Shown piece after piece: positions 6,389-33,611 of a stretch of DNA of 33,611 nt (position 1 is the stretch's first letter; every line of letters starts with the position of its first letter). The position numbers were made by a program, and so were the translations under genes. The notes beneath the pieces are model-generated. The model saw nothing but the letters and a program-made list of their open reading frames with translations. It had not been told where the DNA came from and searched no databases. The stretch is from Jimgerdemannia flammicorona (Eukaryota): assembly GCA_003990765.1 (NCBI GenBank), contig RBNJ01000303.1, forward strand, positions 1-33,611. The letters run 5' to 3'.

Positions 6389-6497
6389 CTGTATAAAGAC
6401 AATGTTCGAAATGAAGCGACATTAGTAAGGACATTCGACTAAATCTTGGAGGCTGTTCGTTTGTTTGCGGAAGAAGGGCGTCCATTTGACGAAGAAG

Positions 6498-10027: not shown

Positions 10028-10069
10028 CGACTAAATCGTTCTTAAAAAAAAAAAAAAAAAAAAAAAGAA

Positions 10070-11604: not shown

Positions 11605-11992
11605 ACTTCTTCCTGAATAGGTAATTTATCTCTAAAATATCCTATTCACTCAAACTTCCAAACTTCCATAAGTTATATCTCCTTATACTATATGATTTAT
11701 ATCATTATATTCTTTCAATAGTATCTTCAGAAATAAGCTAGAGCTCCTTAAATAACTTATTAACATATTTGACAATAGTAATCTAAGTATAGGAGAGCTG
11801 GCACTCTCTAATCTAGTCTTCTTTTCTCATCTCTAGGTACAAGTTTAGTAGTTGTTCCAACTTGAAGTATTCTTGAAACTTGGTCTAGTTCTGATAGATC
11901 TTAAAATGTGAGATTTATAACAAGTATATCTGGACTATACTCTGAATACTATCAAAGAATTCCTCATAATTGGCAGCTCAGTAGTACACCAT
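11605..11992 (-). pseudogene. Post-integrase accessory ORF3 of Gypsy A copy 1
   Basis: The ATG at 11992 (MVYY*AANYEEFFDSIQSIVQ...SYT*ITIVKYVNKLFK...ALAYF) is conserved in copy 2 at 22882. The frame runs toward the PPT/LTR. Confidence 0.6.
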
Positions 11993-14677: not shown

Positions 14678-15095
14678 TTCAGTGAATTCAAATTCTTTTC
14701 TTCCTCTTTCTATTCTCTCTAACTTCTTGACTTCCATAATCTTTGGCTGAAGAACTGAGAAGATTAATATCTATCTGAGTCAGTTCTTCTTCTTGATTAG
14801 AAATAGAATTGTAGGGTTGTGATTTCTAGCAATAAATAGTTTTCTCCAATATAATCTAAATTAATAACCCCTTCTTTAATAGTAATCTCACTCTTGGCCA
14901 GACTGCTTCTTGTCTTGAGGATTCTGATATAGTTCTTTAGAATAGTCATCTCTAGACCAGTTGTAAGTAGGGTGGTTATCTGGAGCTCTAGTATAGTTTT
15001 CTCCACTATAGTGATATCTATTCTGGCTATATTCTCTGACTTATATTCTGGTAGAACTATATCAGAGTAGATTTTCCAAATCTTGACCTTGATTT
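14678..15095 (-). pseudogene. dUTPase domain embedded in Gypsy pol between protease and RT
   Basis: All five trimeric-dUTPase motifs are recognisable after reverting G>A/C>T: ARIDI (AGxD), KTRSSLAK (RSS), EGVINLDYIGE (GVIDxDYxGE), KKN*LR*ILI (GDRxxQ) and ERGRKEFEFTE (RGxxGFGSTG). Confidence 0.88.
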
Positions 15096-17249
15096 TTTCT
15101 TCATCATCACTGTTCTCCAAGAGGGCAGATGATTTATCATCCTCTTTCTCCTTCTTCTCTTCTCTTGTCTATTTCTCAAAAACCTTCTGTTTTCTTTTAT
15201 AGTAGATCTTCTTGATTCAACTGGTATACTTGTAGTAATCATTGACATACTCCATATAATATATCTTGATTTTGTGAGAGCAGACTCTTTGTAGTATATA
15301 TCCTTCAATAATTCTCTCATATCATTCTTCTTTACTAATCTATCTAACTTTCTTCTTCTTTTTCTAAGTAGTTACCATATAGGTTTCTTCTTGCTTACTT
15401 TCTTCTTTCAAGTACTTCTTTGTTGACATTGATAAGAATTCACATCTTCTGACCTTAATAGATAATCTGCATCTTTTTCTAAGCATTTAGATCAATTATT
15501 GCTCTGGCTTTATGAAGTCACTGGTTGCTAATAAGGATTTCATAGTTGGTAGCATTGGTTATGATGACATCTACTGAGATAGTTATTCCTTCAAACTTAA
15601 TAAAAATATTCTAGATCTTTCCTAAAGATATGACTCTTATACTATCTACTATAATAAATATTAATTTGATTACTTCTTCAACCTCCCAACCTAGGCAGTT
15701 TGCTGCTTTCTTGCTGAGAAGACATCTCCTTACTCTAATGTTAATAATGACTTTAAAGATTCTATCTTTGATTTGATAGGTTACATAGGTAGTTGTTTTT
15801 ACTTTCTTTTTCTGAGTCCTCTTGATTATTGTTGACCTTAGTTATCTTACATCCTTACTTCTTAGTTGTCTTGATAAGTCTATATTCCATTTACTATCTG
15901 AATATAAGTATTTCTACCAGTTGGCTGAAGGTTATATTAACCTTTTATTAACTGAGGTCCTTGAAAATATCATACTTAAAAGTCTTAATTTTGCAGAGCT
16001 TCTTCTTCTTTTCTCCTTTGCTAGCTGGCATAGTTTCTCAAATGATATTCTGAATAGCCTGTTCCAGCTCTATATTCTGATCTATTTCTTCTACTTAACT
16101 TTCTATAGTAGTCTCTATCTATTTCTCAACTGGGTTCTTTTTTGGTCTCTCTGGTGGTCTCTTATAGAATTCCTTTCAGACATCCTTCTTAGTAGTCTGA
16201 GTAAGATAGATCTCTCATTCTTCTTTATCTAATTCTCTGATCTCTTTGAAGATAGTAGTATTGATTTGTTCTTTATTCCTTATAGTATTACTTGGCTGAG
16301 TCTTATACTTGGTCTCACTTATATATTCATATAAGTAGTGGCCTTCTTCTCTACAGCTATAATAGATATCTCTCTTCATGTCTAAGATGGTGACAAACTT
16401 CTGAACTGGGCAATAATCTCTTCCTCTGATCTTTTTTATCATATCTTCTAGATGGACTATTATTTTAGCAAACTTTTTAGCAAGTTCCTCCATAGGGTCA
16501 CTATTTCTCTGCTATTCAATAGCTCTTGATTTAGGTGTGTTTCAATTAATCACTATGATAGAGATCATGCTAGTTATCTTAGATGCTTTAATTCTAACTC
16601 TAGTGACTCTTTCCATTATATAGTTTTGTAAATATCTGACTATCTAGTATTACTGGATATAGGTGATCTTCTATGCTAGATCTAGGACTATTAGTGATAA
16701 GCAGATAACCATAGCTATCTCTGGGTGAACTCTTTTCATAAAGGTTGCTTCAGCTACTTAATCTTGGATAGCATCAGTATAATCTGTAAAGATTATCTAA
16801 TATTAAATTCTAGTATAAAATATATTTAGATTCTCACTCATTCCTTGATATATTATATTGAGCTAATTCTTCAGAGCTTGTTTGATCTTATCTATCTAGT
16901 AGGTGGCTTAGAGCCAGGCCTTCTATACTGTCAGCATAGTATTATTATTATTTCTCATATAAGTTATAGCTATGAATGCTGCTCTTGCTGAGCCTCATAG
17001 ACTGAAGGGCATGAGAACTATTTACTATCTTGCTATCAGGGTCCTTATAGTATCATATTACTCAAAATCATTAATAAAGGTGATAATTGATTTATTTGAA
17101 GTATATCTATAGAATACTAGTAGTCTCATATCTATCTTATCTGGATATCTTGGTTCAATTTATATGATTGTTCAGATGATAGCAGTTGTTCATTATTTAG
17201 CTTGAAAGTGAGAGATTCATCTTAAATTACTAGTCAATAGATACTAAGT

Positions 17250-17732
17250 TGTAACATAGTAAATGTATAACTATAGAAGTATATCAGATTTCTGTATTTT
17301 GAAAACTTGATCTTTTTTAACTCCACAGAGTTCTCAGGATATAGAAGTAAGTAAGTTTGAATATGTATCTGCCTATAGGCTTACTAGTTCTCTTGCTTTC
17401 TCTTTTACTTTGAACTATTTCAATCTGAGATTTATTCACTCTAGATACTGGAAATATTTATATAAGTTTACTAGCTATAAGATGGCTAAGTTATGACTAT
17501 ATTTTCTGTGAGTTACTTTTTATAAATATTAATTCTTAACATCTGTTAAATCTTGACAATCATCAAGATTTAACATCTGTGAAATCAAAAACTTAATATT
17601 TGTTAAAACTCTATATTTGTGAAATATAACTGTTATTTGTAAAGCTATACTATATTTGAAAATTAGATTCAGATACTGTAATCAAATATCTATTCTCTTG
17701 ATTTATGTTTCTAATTTAAATCAACTATCATA
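17250..17732 (-). repeat. 5' LTR of Gypsy A copy 1
   Basis: Direct repeat of 11112-11604. The differences are almost all transitions. Confidence 0.9.
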
Positions 17733-18420
17733 ATAGCTAAAGGAGTTATAAACTAAGGATTCAAAGGTGAAATCAAGATTCTCTTATATAATACTAAATA
17801 GAAGATAGTTGAAATTATATATAGAAAATAAATCACTCAAGCTATTATTAAGATAATATATAATAATCTTAAAGTCAAAGAAACAAATAAACTGTTACCC
17901 TCTGATAGAGGAGAAGAAACTTTTAGATCAATAGAAAAGTATACTAACAAGACTAAGGAGAAAACTAAGATATGGAAGATCATTTATATTGAAGAATCTC
18001 AGATCAAGACCAGAAATAATATTTTTATAAAATTAAAATATACTTTTTTGAATATAGAAGAATATATTATATATATTCTCAAATCTAAGAAGTATAAGTC
18101 AACTATCTCAGAATAATAGAATAAAGAAATTAAGAATATCAATAATAAAGATAGAGAAGTATAAGATTGAGAAGAAGAAACTATCTCAGAAATAATTGCT
18201 ATCTTGTAAGAAGACAATATAGAATATATCTATTCCCAAGAGAAAATCAAAAAAAATCCTATTGAAGTCCTTATTGATAGTCAAGTAAGTAAGTATTATC
18301 TTAATAAAGGAACTACTGATAAATTCTATCTTAAGATATAGAGATATCTAGAAGATTGATAGCTTCTTAAGCCAACTGATAAGCTCTTTAAGTAAGGGCA
18401 AAACTAGTTCATAATATCCA
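17733..18420 (+). mobile_element. Hypermutated gag/protease-like relic of an older LTR element
   Basis: IEVLIDSQVS at 18261-18290 resembles the retroviral aspartic protease motif LIDSGAS, in a purine-rich coding-like context with many stops. Confidence 0.4.
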
Positions 18421-19077
18421 AGCAGACTTCTGTTTTCAAGTATGCAGCAAAATTTTATGAAGATATGTAACTTTATAATTTATAAAAAAAAAAGAGATAT
18501 TCAGAAGGAAATATTATTATATTCAGAAATAGAATAATATAAAAACTCTCTAAGATATATAAGAATATATTTTTATAACTTAGAAATTATATCATAAGAT
18601 AAATCTTTTACTAGTACTCTCAAATAAATTAAATCAATTTAAATCAAAATCAAATTGGAGATTTTAATATTTAAATTAAATTTGAATTAAATTAAATTTA
18701 AATTGAATTGAGGGTCTAATTTGAATTAGTTAAATTAAATTAAACATTAATTCAAGATTCTTAGTAGCTTACTATATTATGAGATAATCTATTCTTTATT
18801 TGAAAGATATATTACTTAAAATTTATATATAACTAATATACATTTTTGAAATTCTCATATATATAACTAGTCCTAGTTTTGATCTTAGCTATATCTGGCT
18901 ATAGTGATAGTTATATGGTAAGTATTATTATATGACCCCCTTTTTAACAAAAGATCAGAAATTAATAGATTGAGTTATTAACAGATTTTAAGAAGAATAC
19001 AATATAGGTTTCTATATCTTTTACAATTTTTGCAGCTTATATGAGATTGATCTTTAATTTTTAAAGTAGTAGCTTAG

Positions 19078-19445
19078 ATAGTAATAGTGGCTTAAGCTTG
19101 AGTAGTGGCTTGAGCTTAAGCAGTAGCTTGAGCTTAGGTAGTAGCTTAGATAGTAGTAGTAGTGATAGTAGTAGCTTGAGTGATAGTGATAGCTTAGACT
19201 ATGACAGTAGAAGTAATAGTAGTAGTAGCTTGAGCTTAGACAGTAACTTAGACTAGGGCAGCAGCTTGAGCTTAGATAGTAGTTTAGGCTTAGATAGTAA
19301 CTTGGGCTTAAGTAATAGCTTAGACTAAAGTAGTAACTTAGGCTTGAATAGTAGCTTAGGCTTAAGTAGCAGCTTGGGCTTGAGTGGTGGCTTTAGAGGT
19401 CTTAGAAGTGAAGGCTTCAGGAGTAGCCTGAGGGATAGCTTCAGG
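19078..19445. repeat. Degenerate low-complexity tandem repeat with 6/18-bp periodicity (AGTAGCTTGAGCTTAGAT-like)
   Basis: Repeated agtagcttga/gcttag units. Probably a deaminated GC-rich repeat encoding Pro/Lys-rich sequence on the minus strand. Confidence 0.75.
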
Positions 19446-19696
19446 GTAGTCCTTGAGATAAATTACTTAATTACTTCTTCAATCTTTTTCTTCTTCTTAT
19501 ATTTATCATCAGTCTTAGGTTCTTCATTATCTAACTAGATGACAACTTTATTGATAGTATTATTTATATTCTCAAAGACTCCAGAAAGATAATTAATAAA
19601 GAATTAAAGTTTTTTATGAGATAAGATTATTTTTTATTTTTTTATTTTGTTTTTTATTATTAAAGCTAGTTTATTTATATATATTTTATCTATATT

Positions 19697-20080
19697 TGTT
19701 ACAATATCTGAAACTCTTAGCTTATACTTATTACTTATAGGCTTGTATTTATTACAATATTTGAAACTCTCAATTTATACTTATTACTTATAAGATTATA
19801 GACTTATAGACTTATACTTGTTATAATATTAAAAACTCTTAGCTTATCCTTATTATTTGTAGGATTATAGACTTATACTTATTACAATATTTGAAGCTCT
19901 TAGCTTATGCTTATTGCTCATAAGATTGTAGACTTGCAGGCTTACTCTTATTGTAATATTTGAAGCTCTCAGCTTATATTTATTACTTAGGAGATTATAG
20001 ACTTATAGGTTTACACTTATTATAATATTCAAAGCTCTTGACTTATGTTTGTTATTTTCAGACTTATAGGCTTATAAGCT
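19697..20080. repeat. Degenerate minisatellite, about 6 units of 53-69 bp
   Basis: The anchor ACAATATTTGAAGCTCT-like motif occurs at 19701, 19754, 19823, 19884, 19953 and 20022 (spacings 53, 69, 61, 69, 69). Confidence 0.85.
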
Positions 20081-20114
20081 TACAAATATAAGAATTTTAG
20101 ATATAGTAACTAAG

Positions 20115-23100
20115 TAGGAGTATTCACTAGTATCAAGATCACTGAGCTAGAGCACAAAAAGGAAGAAACTACAAACAAGTACAGCTATACTATTGAAAAT
20201 GAATTCTCACTCAAGGTGGAGCTCAAGAAAATATTTTACAAATTTGAAGATATTCTCACTACAGATTTCAAGGATATCAAAGAAAAGACTCCACACTACT
20301 ATTATGATATAGATACTAGAGATACTGAACCAATTTACCAGAAGACAAGATCCATCCCACTAGCTTACTGAGAATGGCTCAAAGAAGAAATCAAGCAGAT
20401 AGAAGAGCTGGCATCATTAAGGAGACCAGTAGCCCCTGGTCTTCACCAGTTATACTAGCTCTGAAGAAAGGAAGTAAGCCTAGAGAATTCACCCCAAGAC
20501 TCTATATTGATTACAGAAAGCTCAATATAGTTACCAAGAAGGATTGCCAACCACTACCACTTATCAATGATATGTATCCTTATAACTTTGAGAGATAAAG
20601 CTCAGTACTACAGTACCTTAGATCTATACTCAGGATTCTACCAAATTAGACTCACAGAACAGCAAGTGAGATATCAGCCTTCATCATCTCAGATAGAACC
20701 TATATCTACCTATGAATACCATTTGGAATATATAATATCTCTGCAAGCTTCCAGCAAATGATAAACAAAATCTTCTACCATGATATGAGAAGATAGATGA
20801 TAGTTTATATGGATGATGTTATTATCTACAGCAAGACAGCCAAGGAATACCTGCAGCACATCAAGCAGATAATAGAAAAGCTAAGGTAGCATAGTCTTTA
20901 TATCAAGCCCAAGAAGTACAAATTCACAGAAATTGAAATTATCTATCTTGGCTACATCATTAATCAAGATGGAACATATACAGACCCTCTCAAGATTCAA
21001 GCAGTGCAGTATACCCAAGGCCTACCATAGTTACAGAAGTCCAAGCCTTCATGGGACTTACCTCATACTACTGCTGATTTATCAGAGGATTCTCTAACAT
21101 TGTAGACCCAATCTATGAACTCAATAAGAAAGATACTAAGTTCTAATAGACTGGTAGATAATAAAAAGTATTTGAAGAACTTAAGGTCAGATGGATTCAG
21201 ACATCTATCCTCAGAAGACCTAATTGAACTCAAGAATTCATTCTATAGACAGATGCAAGTGCCCAGAGACTAGGAGTAGTTCTAGCCCAAAAGAAAGACA
21301 AAGTAGAGTATATATATCATTATATACCTAAGTTGAGGAACTTGAGGAGCCAAAAAAGAATATGAATTCTACAAGTTAAAATATCTTGCAGTTATCTGGG
21401 CTGTAGAAAAGTTCTATTACTATCTTGCTAGAAGATACTTCACTATTCAGACAGACCACTTAGCCCTTACTTGGCTACTGACCAATGGACAATCCAAAGG
21501 AATTTATGTCAGATAGATCATAAAGTTGCAAGCATATAACATAATCATTGTGCACTACCCAGGAAGAACTAATACCAATGCAGATACCCTCTCATAGATA
21601 CCCTGAAGAACTCCCAACCAGCAAATTAATTATGAATAAGGAGCTCTACTATGGAATAATCACCTATCTGAGACAGTGAAAGACCCAATATCTGAAAGAA
21701 TGGACATAAACAATTATTAACAGAACATAGAAACAATTCAAAACCAATAAAGAAATATTAAAGAAAGAAAAGTTACTAATCATACTAAAATATAAGAAGG
21801 AGTAAGCAATGAAATCAGTATATGAACTTGGTCATCTGAGAGGAACAAATATATATAACAAAGTAAGAAGAATGATATGGTGGCCAGGAATAGAGGAAGA
21901 TATCAGACAATTTGTCAAGACCTGTGACAAATGTCAGAAACAGAAACAAGATTAATGAAATTAAGCCTCAGGATCAGTACACATAGAACTAGTACAATTT
22001 TCCCATATTGTAATAGATATAATTGGCTCTCTATCCTTGACTTTGACCAGCAACCAATAAATCATTGTCATTATAGACCTTTTCACAAAATGGATAGAAG
22101 CAGGACTCCTCAAGGAAGCCAATGTATAGTCAATTGCTGATTTCTTTCACAAAGAAATCATCTACTAGTTCAAGACCCCAACACAAGTAACTACAGATAG
22201 AGGAACAGAATTTGTGAACCAGTTCTTCGAGATTCTCTACAAGAAGTATAAGATCCAGCACATTTAGACTACAGCATACCATTCTCAAAGAAATAGACAG
22301 ACAGAAAGAACCAATAAGACTCTCAAAAATATTATTACCAAGATCTGCAATAACTATGAAACCTAGGATCACTATCTGCCAATAAAATTATCTACTCTCC
22401 AGGATATTGATCATAAAACACCCATTTCACCTCTTGAGAAATGCTGTTTGGAGAAGAAGGTTCTTAAGAAACCCTATCATCCAATAGAGATGTTATATGG
22501 AAATATATGGATGGAGAAATATGGAGACTATACCAAATCAGGAAGAAGACTGAGGATTACATAATCAAGATACAAGCACTATAACAGAATAATGTAGAAA
22601 AAGTTCATAAGCCCCTGGAGATTATCAAGATAGGAGACAAAGTCCTGGTGTATTGGAATATAGTAGAAGCTTCATGGCCATAAAAACTGGAGCCTAAGTG
22701 GAAAGGACCTTACCTTGTGCAAGATATAAAAGAGACTACCTTTTGGCTATGAAAACTCTCAGACATAATCATCTCTACTACTATTCACTAAAACTGACTC
22801 AAGAAGTATCATGGCTAGTTAATGAAGTATAGCTACAGCCCTCAAGATTACTAGTACTACACAACAAGCCATAGAAAGACAATGGTATACTACTGAGTCA
22901 CCCATAATGGAGAAATCCTTTGACAGTATCCAAAGTATAGTACAGATACATCTATCACAAATTTCACACTTCAAGGTCTACCAGAATTAGACAGAGCTTC
23001 AAGAATACTTCAAGTTAGAACATACTGAATTCACAGTCAGAAATGGAAAAAGAAGACTGGATCAGAGAGTACCAGCTCTCTTATTTTCAAAGATAATGAG

Positions 23101-23369
23101 GCAGCCCTAGCCCATTTCTAAGAAGTAGTTCCAGGAGATTTTGGACACATTAAGTGATACTATTGAGAGAACATAATGATACAAATTGTATAGTACAAGA
23201 AGATACAAATTATAGAAGCTTGGGAGTTTGAGTGAATAGGATATTTCAGAGATGAATCACCTATTCAGGAGGAAGTTGTAATGGTTGATTCAAATTAGGA
23301 ACAAGAATTAGGGGAATTAGACATTTGATTGTGGTACCTGAGCCCAATTCCCAATATAGTATAATCTTA
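20115..23369 (+). mobile_element. Gypsy A copy 2, 5'-truncated (RT-RH-IN-ORF3-PPT-partial 3' LTR)
   Basis: Colinear with the reverse complement of ~11510-14675. Motifs: SSPWSSPVIL, RLYIDYRKLN, IVYMDDVIIYS (~20800), RNase H TDAS, integrase GHL...CDKCQ and TDRGTEF. PPT at 23266-23276. The LTR starts TGTAAT at 23277 and is cut at 23369. Confidence 0.93.
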
Positions 23370-23704
23370 GAGGAGGAGGAAGGCCCAGCGGGAGCCATGG
23401 GAGCAAACCCAAAGCCAGTGTTAAAGCAAATGGAAGACATGTGGAAAAGCATATATAAAGGGGACAAACAAAGAATGTAACTGAAATTGCATCAGCCATT
23501 TATTGCTACGTAAAAACATAGTCCTTATATATAAAATACGATATCCCAAAAGGGAGGACATGCCACAACTCGAGGCAAACCGAATTAGGAATCACATGAC
23601 TGCTGGAGATAGGCGGAGATAAGAGGGGAGTCAATCCCAGTTGTAGGATAAAAATCACAAACAAACACAAATAAAACAAATCCAAATCAAGATTAAAAAA
23701 CATC
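23370..23704 (-). repeat. Inverted copy of the distal ~335 bp of the PLE pseudo-LTR
   Basis: Reverse complement of 23858-24189 and 27497-27831, from GATGTTTTTTAATC to CTTCCTCCTCCTC. Confidence 0.95.
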
Positions 23705-24189
23705 CTTGCCCCCTCCAGGGTCTCGCACTCACTCCAGGGCCTTGGCCTTACTCTGCTCCCCTCCACTGCCTTTGGCCCCTCACTTCACTCAGGCTTGCTG
23801 CGGCTCACTCTATTTCGGCCTCACCCCTCGCTTGTGCTCACCCCTCTGGGGTCTGCAGATGTTTTTTAATCTCAATTTGGATTTGTTTTGTGTTTGTTTG
23901 TGATTTTTATCCTGCAACTGGGATTGGCTCCCCTCTTATCTCCACCTATCTCCAGCAATCATGTGGTTCCTAATTTGGTTTGCCCCGAGTTGTGGCACAT
24001 CCTTCCTTTTGGGATGTCATATTTTATATATAAGGACCACATTTTTATGTAGCAATAAATGGCTGATGCAATTTTGGTTACATTCTTTGTTCATCCCCTT
24101 TATACATGTTTTTTCACATGTCTTCCATTTGCTTTGACACTGGCTCTGGGTTCACTCCCATGGCTCCTGCTGGGCCTTCCTCCTCCTCT
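23692..24189 (+). repeat. 5' pseudo-LTR of the PLE, containing TATA-like and AATAAA motifs and the ORF1 start
   Basis: Direct repeat of 27331-27831, with TATATAAGG at ~24027, AATAAA at ~24054 and ATG at 24118. Confidence 0.9.
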
Positions 24190-25320
24190 GCTGTACCATC
24201 TGCCCTCGGGGCCTCCATCCTCATCGACAAGGTTATGGATGAGGTTTCTTCTCCTCCTCCCCCTGCCTTCACCCCTGCTACTGTCTCATTTGAGGCTTAC
24301 GTCTCATCTACCATTCTCTCTCTCCCCCCTTCCGATCATCCACTCCTCTCCCAGTTTCGGTCAGTTCTTGCCCTCTCTGCCAAGGAGACTCATCTCTGCT
24401 GTGACATCGATGTTATTGCTCTGCCTGCCATTTGCTATTCCATTCTCCCTGAGGCCTACCACCAAGCTCTCTCTGAAGAGATTCATGCTGCCACTGCCAC
24501 CACCAAGCTTGCTACTGCTGATGCTGCTACTGCTTCCGCTGCTACTACCTCCGCCTCTTTCCAACATGCCTGTGCTGCTTTCATAGCCTTTACCTCCTCT
24601 TGCCTCTCAGATGCTGCTCTTTTCTGTGGCTTCACCATCCATGAAGTTCCTTCTGTCGCCACTGACATTGATGCTGTATGTCATTTCCTCCTTGCCAGCA
24701 CTTCCTTCGTTGCTCGTCTTCACAAGTAGGAGATGTCTTATGCCACCACTTCTGCTCGCACCACCGCCACTGCTCCCCTACCTGCCTCTCCTGAGGTTTC
24801 AGTCTCTGAGGCCATTTGTGCTAAGGCTCACACTGCCGCTCATGCTGAGGTCCATTCCTTTGCCACCACCGCTGCCAAGGCCCCCTCCAAGACCCCTGCC
24901 AAGGCCCCTGCTAAGCCCAACCAGGCTTTGTCGGCCTCTTCTTGGTCCCCCTCCCCCACCAAGGCTTCCTCCTCTATTCCCTCCACTCCTAAGCATGGCC
25001 ACCAACTTGGTTCTCACCCTGTCAGGACCTGGCCTTATGCTGTCTGCTCCAGTCACCTCCACTGTACCTACTGGCACCCAGCCAAGTCCATCTGTCCCCA
25101 TGGTGGCATTCCTTGCACTGCTGCCCCTTTGGCTGCTCACTTGCCTTCGGCTTCCTCTGCCGGCTCCTCCTCTGCCTCCTCCACCCATGCCCCTGAATGT
25201 AAGGACTGCATGAAAGCCTGTAGCTGCAAGGTCTGGTACTCTGACAGGGTGTGCTCCCATTCGTCAGCTTCGCCACCTTCAAAAAAAGTCAGAGGGAAGG
25301 GGAAGGCCTCTTACTCTTAA
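24118..25320 (+). pseudogene. PLE ORF1 (~400 codons; Ala/Ser/Pro-rich with a Cys/His-rich C-terminal part), one premature TAG
   Basis: ORFs 24106-24729 and 24733-25320 share a frame and are separated only by TAG at 24727 (probable CAG). Cys/His clusters are CSSHLHCTYWH...CPH and HAPECKDC...C.C. Confidence 0.7.
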
Positions 25321-25406
25321 ACTTCCCCCTGGCATGGTTCTCTCCCAGTGTCCCCATCCCTTCTCGGATCCCATTGTCACTTCTGGTGCACCCTGAGTAG
25401 TTCCTC

Positions 25407-27335
25407 ATGTTGACCCCCCTTTGTCTTTCCCAGTTGCTTGTCCTGAACTTTTGGGTTTATTCTTCTCTTGAAACACTTTTGTCTCCTCCTTTTTCTTTGG
25501 CTGACTGTCCTCTTTCTCCTCTTCAAGTCTTTGCCTTATCCTTGGGACCTTGCTTCATTTTTCCTGTGACTCCCTCACAATTTTCCTTTACTGATCCGGC
25601 TTGTCTCACACATTTTCATCATGCTCTTGACCTTGCCATCTTCTTCAAAGATTGTGATGAGATGCCCTCTTGCTATTTTGTTCCCAGCGATTGGGTCCCC
25701 CCTCCCAATGTCTCTTCAAACTGCGTATTCCTCGACATAGCTTGCTCGCTGTCTGTTCCCAGATGTGCTCACTCTTGTTTGGTTTCGGACCATGCCATGC
25801 GTATCATGCTTAAATTGGTCAAGCAATTGCCTATGCATTTGCTCACAGTCACTGATAAGAATCAGGGTTTTGCACTTATTCCTAAGTTGCTCTACCTTGA
25901 TGGCCTTTCTGCCCTCCTTCAAGCTGTGGCTTATGAGCCTAGCGCTCTTGGATTGGATGAGGTTCTCACTCTTCTTTGGGCTTCTCTGGCTCATGCCAGA
26001 TCACTTTTGGATTCCCCATTTACAAATCCCATTTTTAACTTCTTTCAGGACTCTTTGTCCTCTTTGGACATTTGTCTTCTGATCTTCTATGTTCTTTCTA
26101 AAGTTCACAAGCCTACTTTGGCTTAGTGTCCCATTACGGCTGCTTATAATTCCCCCACTACTGAGATTTCAAAGTGGTTATCCCACTTCTTTCTCTCTTG
26201 GATAGCTCTTTTACAACACTGTCTTGGGCCTGAGTATACTATTCTTCATGATACTTAGGAGCTCGCCCTTCTCTGCTCCACCATTGTGCCTGTTCACCAT
26301 TTTTCCCATTTGGTCTCTGGTGATTTTTCCTCCTTCTACACTGCTATTCATTTTGATGAGATCGATGATTGCCTTTGTTTCCTGGGTTCCATTGCCTTTC
26401 CTTTGGACTCTCTGGTCTCGTTGGCTTCTATTGTTGAGCTTATGCTCCTCGTCTGTGGCTCTAATTACTTTGAGTCAGCCCTTGGCTCTTTTCACCAGAC
26501 TTCTGATATTGCCATGGGAACGAATTGTGCCCCTATCCTTGCCAACCTTGTTGGCCTGGCCCATGAGCTTCATGCGATATGTGATCCTTCTTCACCTCTT
26601 TCCATCACATTCCAGGCTGGAGATATCTTCTTTTGCCGATACATTGATGACTTTATTGTCCTTGCTGTTACTGGCATTGATATCTCTAGTGTTTTTTCAG
26701 GTGTCTACCCTCTCCATCATTCTATTACTTGGGTGTATGGTATGACTAGTATTCTCTTTTTGGACCTTTCCATTTCTCTTTCTCCTTTTCGAACTATTGT
26801 CTATTCTCATTTTCCATGTTCTCAACAGTTCTCTGACTTCCTGTCCAATCATCCTCATCACACTCTTCTTGAATGTATTCATAGTGAGGCTTGTTGTCTT
26901 GCATTATGCTGCTCTCATCATTCTGATTGAGTGTCTGCTGTTTGGGTTCTTGGCAACTTCATGGTCTATCGACATACCTATCCAATTTCTATCATTCATG
27001 ATCTGCTTGCTTCTGTTGAATGGTCTGTTGTTCATTCTTCCCTTCTCTCTCCTCTTTATCCCTCTTCCCTTCCCTCCCTCCCCCCTTATCCTCTCCATAC
27101 CCTCTCTTCTTTCCTGCCCCCGATTCTTGTCGTACCATTTGATCATGCTCGCTGGGTTGCTCAATGCCCTGATACCATCCTGCACTCTTCTCTTTCATGC
27201 TATGGACTTTCATCTCTTTCTTGATGCTCTCTGATCACTTGTTCATGTCTTCCTTCTGTTTCTTCTTTAATCCATCGCTCTCATTTTGCATTTTCGTCAC
27301 CTTCTGGTACCTCCAGCTTTGCTAGAGAGAATTAA
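25407..27335 (+). pseudogene. PLE reverse transcriptase ORF2 (~640 codons), four in-frame stops, no frameshift
   Basis: LSLGPCF, TDKNQGFALI, FYVLSKVHKP...PI, GDFSSFYTAI, NYFE...FHQTSDIAMGTNCAPILANL, RYIDD (YIDD 26640-26651), FLDLSI and the thumb SNHPHHT...SEA...CS. Stops at 26124, 26256, 26928 and 27222 are each explicable by C>T/G>A. Terminal TAA at 27333-27335. Confidence 0.9.
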
Positions 27336-27831
27336 AAAACATCCTTGCCCCCTCTGGGGTCTCGCACTCACTCTGGGGTCTTGGCCTTACTCCGCTCCCC
27401 TCTACTGCCTTCGGCCCCTCACTTCGCTCAGGCTTGCTGTAGCTCGCTCTGTTTCGGTCTCACCCCTTGCTTGCACTCACCCCTCTGGGGTCTGTGGATG
27501 TTTTTTAATCTCGATTTGGATTTGTTTTGTTTGTATTTGTTTGTGATTTTTATCCTACAACTGAAATTGGCTCCCCTCTTATCTCCACCTATCTCCAGTG
27601 GTCATGTGGTTCCTAATTCAGTTCGCCCTGAGTTGTAGCACATCCTCCCTTTTGGGATGTCATATTTTGTATATAAGGACTACGTTTTTACATAGCAATA
27701 AATGGCTGATGCAATTTCGGTTATGTTCTTTGTTCATCCCCTTTATACACACTTTTCCACATGTCTTCCGTTCACTTTGACACTGGCTCTGGGTTCGCTC
27801 CCATGGCTTCCACTGGGCCTTCCTCCTCCTC
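27331..27831 (+). repeat. 3' pseudo-LTR of the PLE
   Basis: Direct repeat of 23692-24189, ending in the first ~24 codons of ORF1. Confidence 0.92.
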
Positions 27832-28510
27832 AACTTTCTTGCTAGTATTCAAGCTTACTTCACTTAGAATACTTCTTATAATCAAAGCTAAATATAACTA
27901 TAAAATCCATCAAATAGACATTAAAATAGCCTTCTTAAATAGTGATGTAGATATAGAGCTATATATCTATTACCTATAAAGATATAAACTATATGATGAT
28001 AGAAATAAGCTCATATATAAATTATATAAAGGTCTCTATAATATTAAATAAGCAGTAAGACTGTGAAATCAAAAAAATCAACAAATATCTCTTAGACAAT
28101 AGATTTAAATATTATAAAGCTGATTTATATATATATACCTAGCATATATTCTCAGAAATAATATATCTAGACATTTGGATCAATAATATCATTTTAGTTA
28201 GAACAACAAGTGAGATTAATAATATAAAGATAATACTATATTAGAAATTCAAGATGATAGATATAAGTAATACATCCTATCTTCTTGAAATATTAATTAT
28301 ATATAACAGATATGAATATACTATATATCTATCATAAGTTATATATATTTAGACTATATTTGAATAATTTGATATATGTAAGTAAATAAAAATCTATCAG
28401 AATATCTATGGAGATATCTATAAGACTAAAGAAGTTTAGTGATACTATATCTAAAGATAATAATATTCTCTATTGGTAAGCTGTGAGATCTCTTATATAT
28501 ATATATATAT
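27832..28510 (+). mobile_element. Hypermutated Ty1/Copia reverse transcriptase fragment
   Basis: TFLLVFKLTSLRILL...KIHQIDIKIAFLNSD matches Copia TFSPV...HQMDVKTAFLNG, KGLYNIK*AVRL matches LYGLKQA, and YW*AVRSLIY matches YRxAVGSLMY. The fragment is truncated at both ends by other elements. Confidence 0.88.
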
Positions 28511-28627
28511 TGTGACATACACAATTGACAATAGAGTACCGGTGATTGCTAAGATCAGATGACATAATGGCGTGACAATCAAATAGACAGCCTGACCCAT
28601 TAGGTGATTATCCCAAAAGAAGACAAG

Positions 28628-29704
28628 ATGACCCAAGCCAAAATGAAGACCACATTATTTAAGGAACCATACTCCGCCTCAGGGATCGGCACCAAAGAAC
28701 CAAGTACCCACCATACAATGCCTCCCATTCGCCAAACCAACCAGACCTCCCACCGCTCTACCCCTTTGCCTGGCCCAAAAACCCTGATCTTTGAAGCTAT
28801 CAAGAAGGCCATCTGGTGCCCAGATACTTCCGAACACTTGAACTTCTATACCGAGGACCTTGGACACTTCATCAACTACTGGTATATAATGACCCAACAG
28901 CTCAAAGACACTACCGAACAAATGACCCTCTGGTATGACTATGAAATCGGACACTGCCTTCGCAATGAGACTCAAGAAGGCGACCAGGAAGACCTCATTG
29001 CCGAAATGTTAACCACCAGCCAGCTAATCAAGAGAGCCCTCCGTGTCCATCAAATCTTCCACCATATTCCCTGGGCTATAGCACACTTGCAAGGAGTAAC
29101 AGCTGGCAGCCTCTCCCACCTTTCAACTGAAGATGCTGACTGGATAGAATCTGAAGTAGCCAATGCTATTGGCAGCAACTGCATCAATGTAGGAAGCCAA
29201 CAAACCGAACCTACTCAGCCAGGTTTCCACACCACCCCACTCTGAGACAACCATCAAGGTCACCTAATGAGTCTTATGGAGATATTCGAAGGACCGCCCA
29301 TCACTGTAGAGGCACCCGTTGGAGCTACCCCAACCACCCACCACCCTGTTAGCCACAATTCACACCTCATCATTTGGGAACTGAATCAAGAAAAAGCCCA
29401 AGAAGTTCCTGTCCTTGAAGAGGAGGTCCAAGAACTCCAAGACCCTGCCCCTGAAGAAACCCCCTCTGACACTGAAACTGATGAGCCTTCAGAAGAAGAA
29501 GAGGAGCAACAGAGAGTCTACCAGTCCTCTGTCCGCATTCAAGCTGTTCAAGGGTTGGAGAATGTTGTTGAAGATGACTGGCCACTTTTCTACCCCCTCA
29601 CCTCTTGGCCGGCACTTCCCCCCTTTGAGGAGAGATATGATGAAGAAGAAATCACAACCCAGCAAGATTTGCCCGCCACGGACGAAGGGTACTATTTCCT
29701 CTAG
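28628..29704 (+). pseudogene. LTR-embedded accessory ORF (~330-360 aa; helical N-terminal domain, acidic C-terminus), one premature TGA
   Basis: ORFs 28604-29245 and 29267-29704 are in one frame, split only by TGA at 29243 (probable CGA). Candidate starts are 28628 or 28718 (MPPIR). Confidence 0.72.
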
Positions 29705-29732
29705 AGTACCGCCCATCAGCCATGAGAACCCA

Positions 29733-29945
29733 TCTTTTGTCAGCAAGTCTGTTTCCAGCGTTGCTACCCAGTACCACTGTTTTCAGCATTTTGTCAGCAG
29801 GTCCGAATCCAGCATTGCCACCCTCCACAACTGCTTCTGGCAACAATCATCATATCATGTCAGCTCATCCGAATCCAGCGTTGCTACCCAGTACTACCAT
29901 TTTCAGCATTTTGTCAGCTCATCCGAATCCAGCATTGCTATCCCC
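29733..29945. repeat. Four related ~54-69-bp units (TGTCAGC...TCCAGCRTTGC) upstream of the TATA box, enhancer-like
   Basis: Repeated TGTCAGCNNNTCCGAATCCAGCRTTGCYAYCC blocks. Confidence 0.85.
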
Positions 29946-30108
29946 TATAACCCAATCCGTAGTAAACAATAGCCTGTACCTCGCATCGTGCAAGCCAATA
30001 GCATAGCGAAGTTCACCACAACATAGTATATCTTAGCCTTAGTTGCACCCCCTCCCCCATAGCTAGCAAACTTGTATAAATAACCCATATTCTTAGAGTG
30101 AATAAACC

Positions 30109-30505
30109 TCAGTCAACTGGTTTTGAGAAATAACCACTACCTCCAAGAGACCGGATAAATTCTGAGAACAAGATAACAACCTAGAGCAACAGATCGCTCA
30201 GAAGTTTGAGTTAAAGAATTTTCTCTTGCCACGGAAAGAAAACATTACCCGATCGCCGCCATTCGACCGCCATTCAAGACCCAAGACCCAGCCAAGGATT
30301 CAAGACCATGGACCGCCCGCAAATTCAGTCAATTGGTTTTGAGAAATAACCACTGCCTCCAAGAGACCAGATAAATTCTGAGAACAAGATAACAACCTAG
30401 AGCAACAGATCGCTCGGAAGTTTGAGTTAAAGAATTTTCTCTTGCCACGGAAAGAAAATGTTACCCGACCGCCGCCATTCGAGACCCAGCCAAGGATTCA
30501 AGACT
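30109..30505. repeat. Tandem duplication with a 216-bp period in the R/U5 part of the family B LTR
   Basis: TCAGTCAAYTGGTTTTGAGAAATAACC...CGCCGCCATTCGA begins at both 30109 and 30325. Confidence 0.92.
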
Positions 30506-31048
30506 ATGACTGCTGTGCATTCAGACCGCCATTCGGACTGCCATTCGAGATTCAAGACCCAGAAACCCAAGGATACCCAGCCAAAAGATACAAGACTGCT
30601 GCCAAAGACCCAAACGACCTGCCAAGATACTCGAACGACCACCAGGAACTCTTCAAGTTAACAAGTCAAGACGGACGAGCAAGCCACCAACTTCTGTTTT
30701 TTTCCCCGACCTACTGCGCCACGGACCGCTTTAATTGACTGCATAAAGAGCAAGACCATCAAGACCGTCGCCGCATAAATTCAAGGTCGCCACATAAATT
30801 CAAGTTTGCCGTCAAGTTAATCACCGCCAGGAAACTTAGCCAGCATAATCGCCGCCCTTATCCACTAAACAATTGAGCCATCATTGAATGATCTCCCGCT
30901 ATTATTATCGCACGTTTTGAATGACCTGTCACGTGACCATCGATCCGCGAACATCACCAATGCCCTCAGATATACATCGCGCGCTTCACTAAGTGGCACA
31001 TTGAGCCATGCAGTCGAAGTTCATTATACATAACCCAACATCACATTT

Positions 31049-31065
31049 TGGGGGCTCAACTGGGA
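31049..31065 (+). promoter_or_regulatory. Primer binding site, tRNA-Pro type
   Basis: TGGGGGCTCAACTGGGA follows the LTR-terminal CA and resembles the tRNA-Pro PBS TGGGGGCTCGTCCGGGA. Confidence 0.8.
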
Positions 31066-31943
31066 AAGTTTTCAAAAGACTTGACCATTTGGCTCAAGAA
31101 CCCAGCTATCTACAGTGGAGAACTTAGCAGGACCAAGTCAGCAACCAAACCAGGGGCAGCAACAGCCCTCCTCAGCAGAAAAGAAAGCCCACACCCTTGT
31201 CAGAACAGTAGCCAGGACCCTACTCAACACCAGTAGCCAGAAAACCGAATCAGAAGAAAGAAGTGACCCAGATTATGGTTTGACTTCAAGAGAAAGGAGA
31301 CAACTCAGAGGGCAACCAGAACCGCCCCTTCAGATTCAAGACTTAGGCCAAGAAGAAGAAGAGGATATCCCCGAGGAGTATCAGACCCTTATCCATAGGA
31401 AGAACTCAGACAGAAGTGGCTACATAACTACTGTTGTTACTCGAGTTACTCCACTAGACCAGGTATACTTTGAAACATCAGAAGGAGAAGAGGACAACCA
31501 TCCATATCAACCAGAGCAAGACGACGATTGGGGATCAGACCATCAAAGGGACGAATTCAACCTATACATACTATTATCCAGACAGCGACACTGACCCACA
31601 ATAAGGCAAACAAGACTTCACTACTTCACAACAGCAAGGGGCAGATAAACTCACTATCCGTTATATCAGTCCACTCCCACCATCAGTTGCTCGAACTTCA
31701 GTACCCTGGTCACTCACACCTCGCCACTATCACCAGTCTATCAGAAGATCTCCACCACTACCCAGGACTTCAACCCCAGCATTAATTAGAAGAGCCAGAT
31801 TACCCTCACCCTCACCAAGACACCGCCCTCTGCCAGTACCACTAGATCATCAAGTACTAGCACCACCACCTTCCCCACCACCCTGAGGATCTACCAGAAC
31901 CCCTACCCCTGAACAATACTCAGATAGTGAAGACGAGCCAGAC

Positions 31944-33611
31944 ATGAGCTACCTTCAGAAGTTCCATGGTGCAGACAATGAAGATATCGAGGAATTCTTT
32001 GGAGAAATTGAAGTTCAAGCAGCCGCCAAACAATGGGATGCTGCAAGAAAACTCAGAATCGTGGAGTCACTCCTGAGAGGACTGGCCCTACAGGGGTATA
32101 ATCAAGCCAAGCAAGCCGGAGGAGGAATCCATATAGAGGAACTGAATGACGGCCTTCAACCTGATAGAAACTATGTAGCAAGATACATGATTCACAAAGC
32201 CTGGCTCCGTGCCCAGTTCAATGGATTCGAGCACCAACAAGAAGCACAGGAGGCTTTGACCTATATGAGCCAAGCTGCCAATGAAACTCCCAAGAGTTTC
32301 TACCATTGGATTCAAGCTCAAATGATTAAGGCGAACCTTCAACCAGCAGTCCAACTGGCTCTAGCCTCAACTACCTTCCTCAATGGCTTATACCCAGAAC
32401 TCCAAAGGCAAGTTATCAGGATGGGATATTGAAACATTGAACAGCAAGTTGCTGGAGCACAAGGATGTTGGGAAGCAGATTATAGACCAGTACAACAAGT
32501 ACAAGGCTATCCTGAGCCAATCCGAGCTGAAACCCCAAGGACCAGAGAAACAACCATGGAGCAAGAGAATGCTTTTCTCAGAGCCCAGATAGCCAACTAT
32601 GAGAACAGACCAGCACCCACAAATCCGACTCCATTCAGGCAACCACAGCAGCAGCCACCATCAAGAGTTCAAGAAGACCCTATGACAACACTCACCAAGC
32701 AAATGAAGGACCTGGCCATCGTGGTTGCCCAGCTGAACAACCAAGGTAGAAGACAACAAGACTACCGTCGTGATAACAGACCAGACTACTGGCAACAAGA
32801 CAACAGAGGTCCTGCCCCTGCACTACCAGCTGCAACTACAGTCTCATCAGCGACTGGTTCCTATGGTCCCACCTACTTCAACTGCAGAAATCAAGGCCAC
32901 ATCCAGAGGAATTGTCCAAGGAACCAACCCACCCAGTCCAATGACAGAAATGTCAACCTCTTTCAGGTAGATGAAGAGACTCAGGAGATGGAAGAAGAAG
33001 CAGCCTGGCTCCATGGTCAAGAAGATGACATCTACCTGTACTTCGAGGCTTTTCCATCCAAGGTGACATGGGAAGCTGCCCCCGCAGAGACCAGAGAACG
33101 AGGAAGACCACGAAGGAACCTCCCACCTCAACTGCCAGTAACAATATCCACAGGCAAGCATCCGCGACATGGCCACTCTTCTTCAGATACTCCACAAGAA
33201 CAAGAGAAGCGAGCTAGAAGAGATACTCCTGAACCAGAAGCTGGACCATCTAGGACAACCCCCAGCTCTACCCTGCCAGACCTTGAAGAAGATGAGCATA
33301 TGAGCATAGAATCTTCAGCTGACGAAATGCCCATCAGGAATGAGAGACTACACCCCAAGGGACCAAGACACCAAAGAAGCAGCAAACCCCATGCAGCAGC
33401 CTCACTTTGGGAACATATCCGCCTACAGAATGCTGGTCTTACAGTTGAGCAAGTCCTCAAGAATGCACCAGAAGTCAGGCGAAAATTCCTGAAAGAAGCC
33501 AAGGAAGATACCAAGAGACTTCCAGTCCAAGGACCACACACTCAAGAACCTAGCACTATCCACACAGTCCATGAGAGCCAGTGACATGAACATCAATCTA
33601 CAAGACTCGCC
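31944..33611 (+). pseudogene. gag (probably gag-pol) of family B, interrupted by TGA codons
   Basis: LQKFHGADNEDIEEFF...W...KLRIVESLLRGLAL, MSQAANETPKSFY...FLNGL, and the zinc knuckle YFNCRNQGHIQRNC (first Cys TGC>TAC). The frame is maintained through TGA at 32430 and 33582. Confidence 0.88.

Follow-up and report, generated by a model that had tools for sequence, protein, structure and literature searches.

A probable decayed accessory gene in a putative retrotransposon LTR and its chance resemblance to a second element family

Positions 28718-29704 of the 33,611-nucleotide stretch analysed here (the window) are probably a decayed copy of a real accessory gene that belonged to a long-LTR retrotransposon, family B, and that is unrelated to the post-integrase region of the other element family considered, family A. 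A sequence-only reading of the same DNA had taken 28628-29704 for one open reading frame. This frame is interrupted by a TGA at 29243-29245, and the gene, called ORF B below, starts with the Met at 28718 (MPP...), which matches the start of its relatives. The features of the gene and of its immediate upstream region are the following.

28657-28664, forward strand: TATA-like box TATTTAAG, read from the sequence, 54-61 nt 5′ of the conserved ATG
28718-29704, forward strand: the extra gene, ORF B, about 329 codons in a broken copy, placed by translation and by the similarity of relatives
29243-29245, forward strand: in-frame TGA that splits ORF B in the window copy, recognised from the residues of relatives at this codon

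At the interrupting codon the relatives carry Arg (P0002, P0015 and P0019), Gln (P0003) or Trp (P0017), and a single CpG transition separates the TGA of the window from an Arg codon. The protein begins with a basic N-terminus (MPP.R), continues with a helical domain of about 150 aa and a conserved FEGPPI motif, and finishes with an acidic disordered tail that closes with an acidic run, a Pro and a hydrophobic residue in this order. The acidic tail mentioned in the sequence-only reading was confirmed, with a net charge of -11 to -28 among the members tested. Its view that the protein is not env-like and has no transmembrane segment also stands, as the highest Kyte-Doolittle mean over 19 residues was 0.46-1.09 in the seven members tested, while the usual level for a membrane helix is about 1.6. 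No chromodomain is present according to Pfam either, since window ORF B, P0002 and all 11 rows of alignment A3 are without a Pfam family. A glycosyltransferase match (Pfam, E 0.089) appeared in one of these 11 rows only and was dismissed as noise. Thus, of the soluble third gene proposed for both families, the part concerning family B holds, namely an extra soluble, non-env and non-chromodomain gene beyond gag; its sharing with family A is not supported.

The TATA-like box at 28657-28664 is possibly ORF B's own promoter. In L001, the only other DNA copy of the family, a TATA-like TATAAAAG lies 73-80 nt upstream of the ATG; a box in this place in two of two DNA copies is weak evidence.

A profile search of 1.84 billion representatives gave nine matches at E ≤ 1e-3, seven of them at E ≤ 1e-10. 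Close relatives of ORF B show 74-86% identity to it, and the relatives as a whole form six clusters at about 26-37% identity. The diverged members P0004, P0006/L001, P0007, P0022 and P0023 share about 26-37% identity with the cluster of the window, with profile E-values down to 3e-22, and have open frames of 205-342 aa, in which the same order of motifs is found, from the MPP at the start to the acidic run, Pro and hydrophobic residue at the C-terminus. Judging from these sequences, ORF B belongs to a real protein family conserved over six diverged clusters, because the diverged members keep open frames and motif order, relatives read through the stop of the window copy, and two members give similar models. 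All relatives are known from environmental data. Scanning metagenomes with P0004 yielded one contig of 1.5 kb, L001, which is the only other member with known genomic context and shows no recognisable retrotransposon feature; scanning viral contigs with P0015 yielded no locus. A form fused to gag or pol was absent from 8000 longer candidates, which is weak evidence.

AlphaFold models of two different members contain the same all-helical N-terminal domain, where pLDDT is 70-94 overall, 70-93 in the first model and on average 73 (pTM 0.67) in the second one. A PDB sequence-profile search with the family had no matches at E ≤ 10. Foldseek found none at E ≤ 1e-3 either in PDB (best 0.75) or in BFVD (best 0.19), and the wide search by VIA-align reached a best Z of 3.5 with the full model and of 4.7 with the N-terminal domain model (rmsd 3.5, 82 residues aligned), both below the meaningful level for helical models. 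ESM Atlas returned no usable match for P0002, and for the L001 protein only unnamed clusters at 0.89-0.92, one of them recorded as Mucoromycota, which is a lead only. Thus no Pfam model covers the ORF B family, and neither a solved nor a viral-predicted relative could be detected.

The surroundings of ORF B resemble the 5′ end of an LTR retrotransposon, with the features listed here.

28511-31045, forward strand: putative 5′ LTR of family B, 2535 bp, from TGTGA to TCACA, with an edge in composition and depth
29731-29951, forward strand: two units of about 100 nt at 120-nt spacing, 80% identical, 3′ of ORF B (repeat search)
30075-30115, forward strand: candidate LTR core promoter and poly(A) signal, with TATAAATA at 30075-30082, AATAAA at 30101-30106 and CAGTCA at 30110-30115
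30109-30494, forward strand: a duplicated 170-nt unit at 216-nt spacing, 93% identical (repeat search)
31049-31066, forward strand: PBS-like TGGGGGCTCAACTGGGAA, a TGG-initiated 18-mer 3 nt past TCACA
31887-33584, forward strand: gag-like frame, decayed, with ATG at 31944, read from translation and from Retrotrans_gag and zf-CCHC matches below the Pfam cut-offs

The putative LTR has TG...CA ends with short inverted termini, TGTGA at 28511-28515 and TCACA at 31041-31045. At 28511 a CpG-poor, AT-rich copia fragment gives way to sequence with GC of about 0.48, and summed contig depth rises at 28520 from 0.3-1.8 to more than 100. One contig of run X2 carries, directly before 28511, 24 other letters with a purine-rich run at their end; it does not extend far enough upstream for pol to be seen. 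This run resembles the polypurine tract before a 3′ LTR and may be put down as a putative one. The LTR status of the 5′ edge depends on this single 330-nt contig. On the other side, TCACA followed by 3 nt and TGGGGGCTC occurs once in the window against 0.01 occurrences expected, and the PBS-like 18-mer presumably resembles the complement of the 3′ end of tRNA-Pro. In the window ARAGORN detected no tRNA gene, and Rfam at gathering thresholds gave no matches.

The segment 30075-30115 may hold the core promoter of the LTR together with its poly(A) signal. Contigs of three runs have unlike sequence up to 30058 and the window sequence onward, and contigs of three runs depart from the window at 30112-30115. 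These loose ends suggest a core common to variants with different flanks. Summed contig depth, which cannot rank the parts, is about 190 over 28520-30151, 5-109 over 30152-30967, 42 over 30968-31171 and about 76 in gag. An LTR end near 30115 suits this profile better than an end at 31045, unless duplications specific to the window account for the low bins. The joints of run X11 skip 221-248 nt, from 30281/30308 to 30530, so that part of the 170-nt duplication is absent from other copies, and they suggest that the low-depth bins do reflect such duplications. The 3′ boundary at 31045 is the less certain one, with an alternative near 30115. An end at 31045 implies a U5 of about 900 nt, which would be unusual. 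Contig cover is little or none over 27908-28519 and 30560-30967, where only joints were interpreted.

Downstream, the gag-like frame shows decay of its own, with a stop at 32430-32432 and a Tyr in place of the first Cys of the CX2CX4HX4C knuckle. Its Pfam matches, Retrotrans_gag with E 0.038 and zf-CCHC with E 0.026-0.04, both fall short of the Pfam cut-offs, and a PDB sequence search with the N-terminal part of gag gave chance matches only (E ≥ 0.11). The first base of the TGA at 31884-31886 is C in other copies, and 4 nt at 31564 are absent from most contigs. A gag starting directly after the PBS-like site was considered and rejected: the frame at 31085-31594 has no ATG, and more stops follow. 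The window ends at 33611, inside gag and before any pol sequence. From this arrangement we infer that ORF B sits in the U3 of a 2.5-kb LTR and is followed in turn by the TATA box and poly(A) signal of this LTR, then by the PBS-like site and by the gag-like frame. The position of the gene needs to be restated: in the window ORF B lies upstream of gag within the U3 of the putative 5′ LTR, and only the copy in the 3′ LTR would be post-integrase.

The repeats of the window were described earlier as hypermutated. This holds, and the signature is CpG loss. Family A and the copia fragment have a CpG observed/expected ratio of 0.00-0.01; family B has 0.26-0.60, and the host-gene flank 1.04. No lowering is seen in the (CpA+TpG)/(ApC+GpT) ratio, and therefore the pattern is not that of classic CpA-type RIP.

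How does this decay appear among the variants of the protein family? Within clusters, replacements between Arg and Cys, Trp, Gln, His or stop are disproportionately frequent. They make up 12 of the 67 differences between the window and P0015, 14 of 46 between P0001 and P0015, and 7 of 19 between P0017 and P0015; the shares are 4/4 for P0011 and P0023, 2/4 for P0007 and P0020, and 2/10 for P0006 and L001. As read from these variants, the Arg changes are the same CpG decay as in the repeats of the window, which is absent from its host genes. Five of the six clusters are multi-member, each with several near-identical variants, and CpG-type decay is seen in most of them, as expected of repeats. 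In the 40 rows listed (326 further rows exist), variants of ORF B fall at at least nine positions, seven nonsynonymous and two synonymous, and these nine listed variants give no sign of purifying selection among recent copies.

The family A stretch that was aligned earlier with ORF B is the following one.

23086-23151, forward strand: part of the decayed sequence that separates the 3′ LTR from the integrase C-terminus in family A copy 2

The sequence-only reading had joined the two families by the motif F-x5-A-[LI]-A-H-[FL]-x2-V-x2-G-x-[FL]-x-H-[IL]. Shuffles, the comparison of frames, the profile, the invariant residues and the alignment of copies all speak against this motif and place it at chance level. 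Both strings on which it was built are present, since 29057-29122 is translated as FHHIPWAIAHLQGVTAGSLSHL and 23086-23151 as FKDNEAALAHF*EVVPGDFGHI, and their ungapped pairing has identities at 7 of the 22 positions. However, with stops penalised the pair scores 28, and the best 22-mers of the family B protein against each of 12 frames from two family A regions score 21-36, so that chance 22-mers from half of these frames (6/12) are better than the quoted pair. The most generous shuffle test used the post-integrase frame only and scored stops as 0. Even here the ungapped 22-mer had 34 against a shuffle mean of 26.7 (sd 4.1), a score reached by 29 of 500 shuffles, and Smith-Waterman had 35 against a mean of 32.3 (sd 5.0), reached by 81 of 300. 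A profile HMM made from the family B protein and three close relatives, and run on 336 six-frame chunks of the window, gave the family A stretch a domain score of -4.1 bits with an E of 110.

Individual residues point the same way. His116 and Pro118, near-invariant in the family (...FRH.P..I... in alignment A3), are Asp and Glu in family A, and the last His matched by the motif is a derived mutation of the window copy, the intact relatives having Arg there (R134H). Between copies 1 and 2 of family A the motif block is not conserved: it is the worst-aligned part of a 300-nt region whose remainder is about 85-90% identical, and the 'GALAYF' of copy 1 pairs with 'GDFGHI' of copy 2, not with 'AALAHF'. 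The 'ORF3' of family A is a stop-riddled stretch in the frame shared with the integrase C-terminal module, and no sign of a separate gene was seen in the post-integrase stretch. With Pfam at E ≤ 10, the family A tails of both copies had only a weak MLVIN_C match in the integrase C-terminus and none to a chromodomain, an absence that decay makes weak evidence. The same heavy decay of family A, with its near-complete CpG loss and many stops, could have erased a true kinship; still, we consider it extremely improbable that the two families carry a homologous accessory domain marked by these 22 residues. The stretch 23086-23151 is judged to be unrelated to the extra gene of family B. The idea of an accessory protein kept across both families had this one match as its sole link, and the match fails every significance test. 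The cross-family 'conserved motif' should be corrected to a chance match, built partly of residues made by CpG decay.

ORF B may belong to a real family and still not serve the element. A gene of the host or of another repeat might have been captured into U3 and survive as a passenger only in young copies. The U3 looks modular, in that contigs of three runs match the window from 30058 on and differ before it, and diversification limited to U3 upstream of the TATA box is described for crapaud of Podospora (PMC10787394). Recent ORF B copies also look neutral, given the seven nonsynonymous against two synonymous changes among the nine listed variants, and no functional similarity was found for the protein. 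Nevertheless, a one-off capture does not predict long-term retention in several repeat lineages, and open frames with the same motif order are kept in all six clusters at about 26-37% identity, five of them containing near-identical variants, mostly with CpG-type decay. Neither did any single-copy, host-like relative surface among the 1.84 billion representatives. A passenger gene is in our opinion unlikely.

A different division of the DNA would take the segment that begins at 28511 and stops at about 30058 or 30115 out of the family B LTR and make it a multicopy unit in its own right that happens to adjoin the element, whether another repeat or a dispersed gene family bringing its own promoter and terminator. 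The clustering of loose ends at 30058 and at 30112-30115, in three runs each, would agree with it, as would the depth that peaks over 28520-30151 and then falls, the TATA-like box 5′ and AATAAA 3′ of ORF B, and the presence of the gene in L001 without a retrotransposon feature nearby. Yet the composition is continuous from 28511 to the gag-like frame, with no decayed spacer, and a run X2 contig spans 30009-30177. The TGTGA/TCACA pair together with the PBS-like site fits a single LTR, and in another copy a purine-rich tract adjoins 28511. Taking both sides together, we regard a separate unit as improbable, and the accessory gene of a long-LTR element as the reading to be preferred.

For such an accessory gene, reverse transcription, which places U3 at both ends, would give each new insertion two copies, and the 3′ copy would lie downstream of pol. 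ORF B would most likely be expressed as its own short mRNA, from the TATA-like box 55-80 nt 5′ of the ATG to the AATAAA of the LTR, or alternatively from a subgenomic or 3′-terminal RNA. The role of its protein is a guess, as no function-bearing similarity was found. It may be a trans-acting adaptor or regulator for the element, in which the helical domain binds a target and the acidic tail, together with the hydrophobic motif at its end, draws in host machinery, perhaps for activation of transcription or against silencing. A bolder possibility, which we hold to be rather doubtful, is that each long LTR works as a complete cassette, in which a 330-codon gene stands between a promoter of its own and the LTR terminator, and that it encodes a trans-acting transactivator or anti-silencing adaptor of an undescribed family. 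If this were true, solo LTRs too would amount to functional copies of the gene scattered in the genome, and soil fungi would have arrived independently at an accessory gene in the position that nef or sag has in retroviruses. If only the placement in the LTR is true, the accessory gene is doubled at every insertion and left behind in every solo LTR, which would give a mobile element a distinct means of setting the dose of a trans-acting factor. In any case the ORF B family is well suited to structural and functional study.

That LTR retrotransposons can carry extra genes, and that retroviral LTRs can have genes in their U3, is already known. Accessory genes in U3 are represented by sag of MMTV and by nef of HIV/SIV, the latter overlapping the 3′ U3. 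Like these, ORF B is a coding frame in a putative U3, so it would be doubled at both ends and its 3′ copy would lie downstream of pol. Unlike them, it showed no detected sequence or fold similarity to entries of PDB or BFVD, no env is visible, and the host is apparently a soil eukaryote, probably a fungus, not a vertebrate.

Among retrotransposons, our literature search, which saw its sources in part, surfaced no report of a conserved protein gene inside an LTR from a fungal-type retrotransposon, and this is not proof of absence. The aORFs of plant LTR retrotransposons (Vicient and Casacuberta 2020, PMC7264820) are extra frames beyond gag-pol, conserved within lineages and mostly of unknown function. 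ORF B is likewise an extra frame beyond gag and can be set beside them by description, not by sequence; it differs in its proposed place inside the LTR, and that review, whose main text has no occurrence of 'within/in/inside the LTR', appears not to treat such ORFs. The Boty-like (BcGypsy1) elements of Botrytis cinerea have an additional antisense gene of unknown function, brtn (Zhao et al. 2011, as reported in excerpts of PMC8365987). Here the likeness, again by description only, is an extra gene of unknown function in a fungal element of Ty3/gypsy type, whereas brtn is antisense and ORF B lies on the sense strand inside the putative LTR. CERV of Cer1 in C. elegans, a further protein of a retrotransposon, acting in trans on the RNA of its own element (PMC10309623), is for an accessory protein a functional analogy only, Cer1 being an unrelated animal element. 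With crapaud (PMC10787394) ORF B's surroundings share variation upstream of the TATA box, as the contigs here are common from 30058, 17 nt before TATA. In contrast, the U3 of crapaud is described there as shorter than 200 bp and non-coding, and the U3 proposed here is of about 1.6 kb with a gene of about 330 codons.

Nested repeats adjoin ordinary genes in the window, and its main components are arranged as follows:

1755-4812, minus strand: Hid1/Dymeclin-like host gene (Pfam E 7e-65)
7881-9232, minus strand: host gene of glycoside hydrolase family 81, GH81 (Pfam E 5e-28)
11114-17733, minus strand: family A copy 1, with LTRs at 11114-11605 and 17252-17733
about 19400 to 23317, plus strand: family A copy 2, delimited by repeat search
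23692-27831: element with 490-bp direct repeats, an inverted solo copy of the repeat lying at 23369-23705
left of 28511: decayed copia reverse transcriptase (RT) fragment with an RVT_2 match
28511 onward: family B, by composition far less decayed than the other repeats

Each of the two host genes is spread over several frames, presumably by introns. A 24-nt unit, TCAATCGTCGTTCGGCGTTCCATC, forms seven tandem copies at 9805-10020 (the middle copies are 94-100% identical) at the border where the host genes give way to the AT-rich repeats. Family A is of the Ty3/gypsy type and degraded; it gave Pfam matches to RVT_1, RNase H, Integrase_H2C2 and rve. The 5′ part of its copy 2 contains an 18-nt periodic array at 19060-19413, in which a 72-nt reference recurs in 13 overlapping copies, and, at 19733-20076, a repeat spaced at 61-69 nt. 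The direct repeats of the next element (23692-24181 and 27331-27824) are 89% identical, the inverted copy adjoins the element, and its plus-strand frame carries the RT-like strings LSKVHKP, AMGTNCAPILAN and YIDDFIV; Pfam returned nothing for this frame at E <= 0.001. We take these motifs, and the mixture of direct and inverted terminal repeats, to be reminiscent of Penelope-like elements.

In the host-gene flank left of the repeats, where GC is about 0.5, the observed/expected ratio of CpG is 1.04. It drops to 0.26-0.60 in family B and to 0.00-0.01 in the copia fragment and both copies of family A. When positions 10001-23317 and 27840-28510 were compared with 1-10000, the (CpA+TpG)/(ApC+GpT) ratio of the repeats stayed at 1.1-1.75. 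The repeats have decayed through CpG loss and do not carry the classic CpA-type RIP signature. GC drops to 0.15-0.35 in the decayed repeats, for which CpG loss by itself is hardly sufficient.

An accessory protein of family B had been proposed at 28628-29704. The plus-strand reading frame there is real, but it is not continuously open, being interrupted by an in-frame TGA at 29243-29245. Word-index search detected three close relatives with 75-77% identity; one of them, P0002 (325 aa), has Arg at the stop codon of the window and a continuous frame, and all relatives start at the Met corresponding to 28718 (MPP...). A profile search against 1.84 billion representatives gave nine proteins at E <= 1e-3, seven of them at E <= 1e-10, and the metagenome contig L001 contains an intact 291-aa frame of the family. 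Profile search, cluster look-up and L001 together define six clusters with about 26-37% identity between them, and in each cluster at least one member has an open frame of 205-342 aa. The architecture is common to all six: a basic N-terminus, then the motifs DLGHF..R, W.[DE]YEIGH and HQIFRH.P..I, a linker followed by D[NT]...L..L...FEGPPI, and an acidic C-terminal tail (net charge -11 to -28) in which an acidic run precedes Pro and a hydrophobic residue. For two different members AlphaFold predicts the same all-helical N-terminal domain, about 150 residues long (P0002: mean pLDDT 60, with 70-93 across this domain; N-terminal model of L001: mean pLDDT 73, pTM 0.67). Such deep conservation together with the preserved frames shows that the protein is real. 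We conclude that family B carries a genuine gene, belonging to an undescribed family and broken in the window copy.

The searches gave no clue to function: none of the 11 rows in the alignment of these relatives matches a Pfam family, and a PDB sequence search with the family gave no match. Foldseek against PDB and BFVD found nothing at E <= 1e-3, the best VIA-align Z values (3.5 and 4.7) are at a level meaningless for helical models, and the neighbours in the ESM Atlas are unnamed ones only. One of these neighbouring clusters is assigned to Mucoromycota in its record, which is a lead only. Every protein relative is of environmental origin. Parts of the family B stretch occur in 11 soil-metagenome runs and two runs of one organism, again as leads only; in these runs (X1-X13, eight studies) the shares of sampled words are 0.05-0.30, and none of the runs listed is of RNA. 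A longer fused form of the protein was not found among 8000 longer candidates.

Is the gene also present in family A? The sequence-only reading had paired a 22-residue peptide of family B (29057-29122) with one from a post-integrase ORF3 of family A (23086-23151). Both peptides occur at these positions, and the ungapped pairing has 7 identities of 22. Its BLOSUM62 score is 28, while the best 22-mers of the family B protein against the two family A regions, read in 12 frames altogether, score 21-36, and six of these frames exceed 28. In the most generous shuffle test (post-integrase frame only, stops scored zero) the best ungapped 22-mer scores 34 and the Smith-Waterman alignment 35; shuffled versions of the family B protein reached these values in 29 of 500 and 81 of 300 cases, respectively. 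Run on 336 six-frame chunks of the window, a profile built from the family B protein and close relatives gave the family A stretch -4.1 bits (E 110). The conserved core of this segment is H-Q-[IV]-F-R-H-x-P-x-x-I; its nearly invariant His and Pro are Asp and Glu in family A, and most of the paired positions vary inside the protein family. The last paired His is Arg in intact relatives, so it represents a CpG mutation particular to the window copy. When both family A copies are aligned, the region is 85-90% identical except for the motif block, which is conserved worst of all, and the peptide thought to be partly retained in copy 1 aligns elsewhere in copy 2. No separate ORF3 is evident in family A: the stretch is full of stops and lies in frame with the C-terminal module of integrase. 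Shuffles, rival frames, profile, residues and copy comparison all speak against homology, and the motif said to link the two families is a chance resemblance.

The least-decayed relative, P0015, served as reference for the window copy. Among 67 residue differences, 12 are Arg in P0015 and Gln, His, Cys, Trp or stop in the window, all accounted for by a CpG-to-TpG or CpG-to-CpA transition. Between near-identical variants of the relatives Arg losses are likewise in excess, with a share of 4/4 (P0011 and P0023), 2/4 (P0007 and P0020), 2/10 (P0006 and L001), 7/19 (P0017 and P0015) and 14/46 (P0001 and P0015). This excess has the same pattern as the CpG decay of the window repeats, so that multiple decaying copies make up five of the six clusters; linkage to a retrotransposon is shown for one cluster only. 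Among the variants listed (40 rows, with a further 326 beyond the listing), nine positions fall inside the gene, seven nonsynonymous and two synonymous. The gene drifts among recent copies, and these counts give no support for function; such drift says little about active lineages, since any transposon copy undergoes neutral decay once it has inserted.

The less decayed block begins with TGTGAC at 28511, directly after a (TA)n run within the copia fragment. Logan contigs from four runs, of which two are soil metagenomes and two come from one organism, were aligned to 27500-33611; at 28520 their summed depth climbs from 0.3-1.8 to more than 100. The match of one contig from run X2 starts exactly at 28511, after 24 unlike letters with a purine-rich run at their end, an appearance that would be expected of the polypurine tract preceding a 3′ LTR. 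Differences between the family B copies in contigs are mostly transitions. At 31041-31045, TCACA mirrors the TGTGA start and is followed by three T's and the 18-mer TGGGGGCTCAACTGGGAA, a pattern found once in the window against 0.01 expected. The 18-mer may resemble the complement of a tRNA-Pro 3′ end; tRNA-Pro is the primer of some retroviruses. A gag-like frame follows. The start and depth boundary, the TGTGA/TCACA ends, the TGGGGGCTCAACTGGGAA site and this frame make 28511-31045 most likely a 2.5-kb 5′ LTR, with these features in and behind it:

28718-29704, plus strand: the gene, inside the putative LTR
29731-29951: repeat pair with 120-nt spacing, inside the putative LTR
30075: TATA box TATAAATA, inside the putative LTR
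30101: AATAAA, inside the putative LTR
30109-30494: duplicated 216-nt unit (repeat search), inside the putative LTR
ATG at 31944, plus strand: gag-like frame with weak matches to Retrotrans_gag and a CCHC knuckle

As the gene lies upstream of TATAAATA and AATAAA, it would most likely belong to U3 of a long LTR whose 3′ counterpart is outside the window. The gag-like frame is broken by a stop at 32430-32432, and its knuckle (about 32880-32925) has Tyr at the first Cys position. Most contigs of other family B copies lack 4 nt at 31564, and the TGA at 31884-31886 has C as its first base in other copies.

Contig depth stays high only as far as about 30151 and is low at 30560-30967. In three runs, contigs do not resemble the window until 30058, and in three runs contigs depart from it at 30112-30115, so that the 55 nt containing the TATA box and AATAAA are common to variants differing on both sides. 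The LTR may end near 30115 instead of 31045, in which case the gene would still lie within the terminal repeat, or the gene-bearing segment may be a separate unit adjoining family B. Joints in the contigs skip 55-248 nt within 30281-30903, and for this reason we attribute the low-depth bins to duplications specific to the window. The loose ends at 30058 and 30112-30115 are explained here as LTR subfamilies with a common core and differing U3; this resembles the U3-limited variation reported for crapaud of Podospora (PMC10787394).

If the 2.5-kb LTR is accepted, reverse transcription would place a U3 at either end of the element, giving two copies of the gene per insertion and one per solo LTR. 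A TATA-like box lies 54-80 nt upstream of the conserved ATG in both available DNA copies (TATTTAAG at 28657 in the window, TATAAAAG at 296 in L001), and the AATAAA of the LTR is about 400 nt past the gene stop. These signals favour transcription of the gene as its own short mRNA. Expression could also proceed through subgenomic RNA made from the 3′ copy; alternatively, the upstream box could be the real promoter of the element and the gene the cap-proximal frame of full-length RNA. Many adaptors and activators combine a folded helical domain with a long acidic tail ending in a hydrophobic motif, and it is by this layout alone that the protein may be a trans-acting regulator.

Retroviruses are known to carry genes in U3 of the LTR. 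Extra frames are established in plant LTR retrotransposons (PMC7264820), and further examples are brtn, an antisense extra gene of Boty-like elements in Botrytis (PMC8365987), and CERV, an extra protein of the C. elegans element Cer1 (PMC10309623). Extra frames of LTR retrotransposons are already known, and the family B gene, its LTR placement and trans-acting role being putative, would represent a variant in U3 of a fungal-type LTR, a location for which literature searches, at the level of listings and passages, yielded no report of a protein gene in a fungal retrotransposon.
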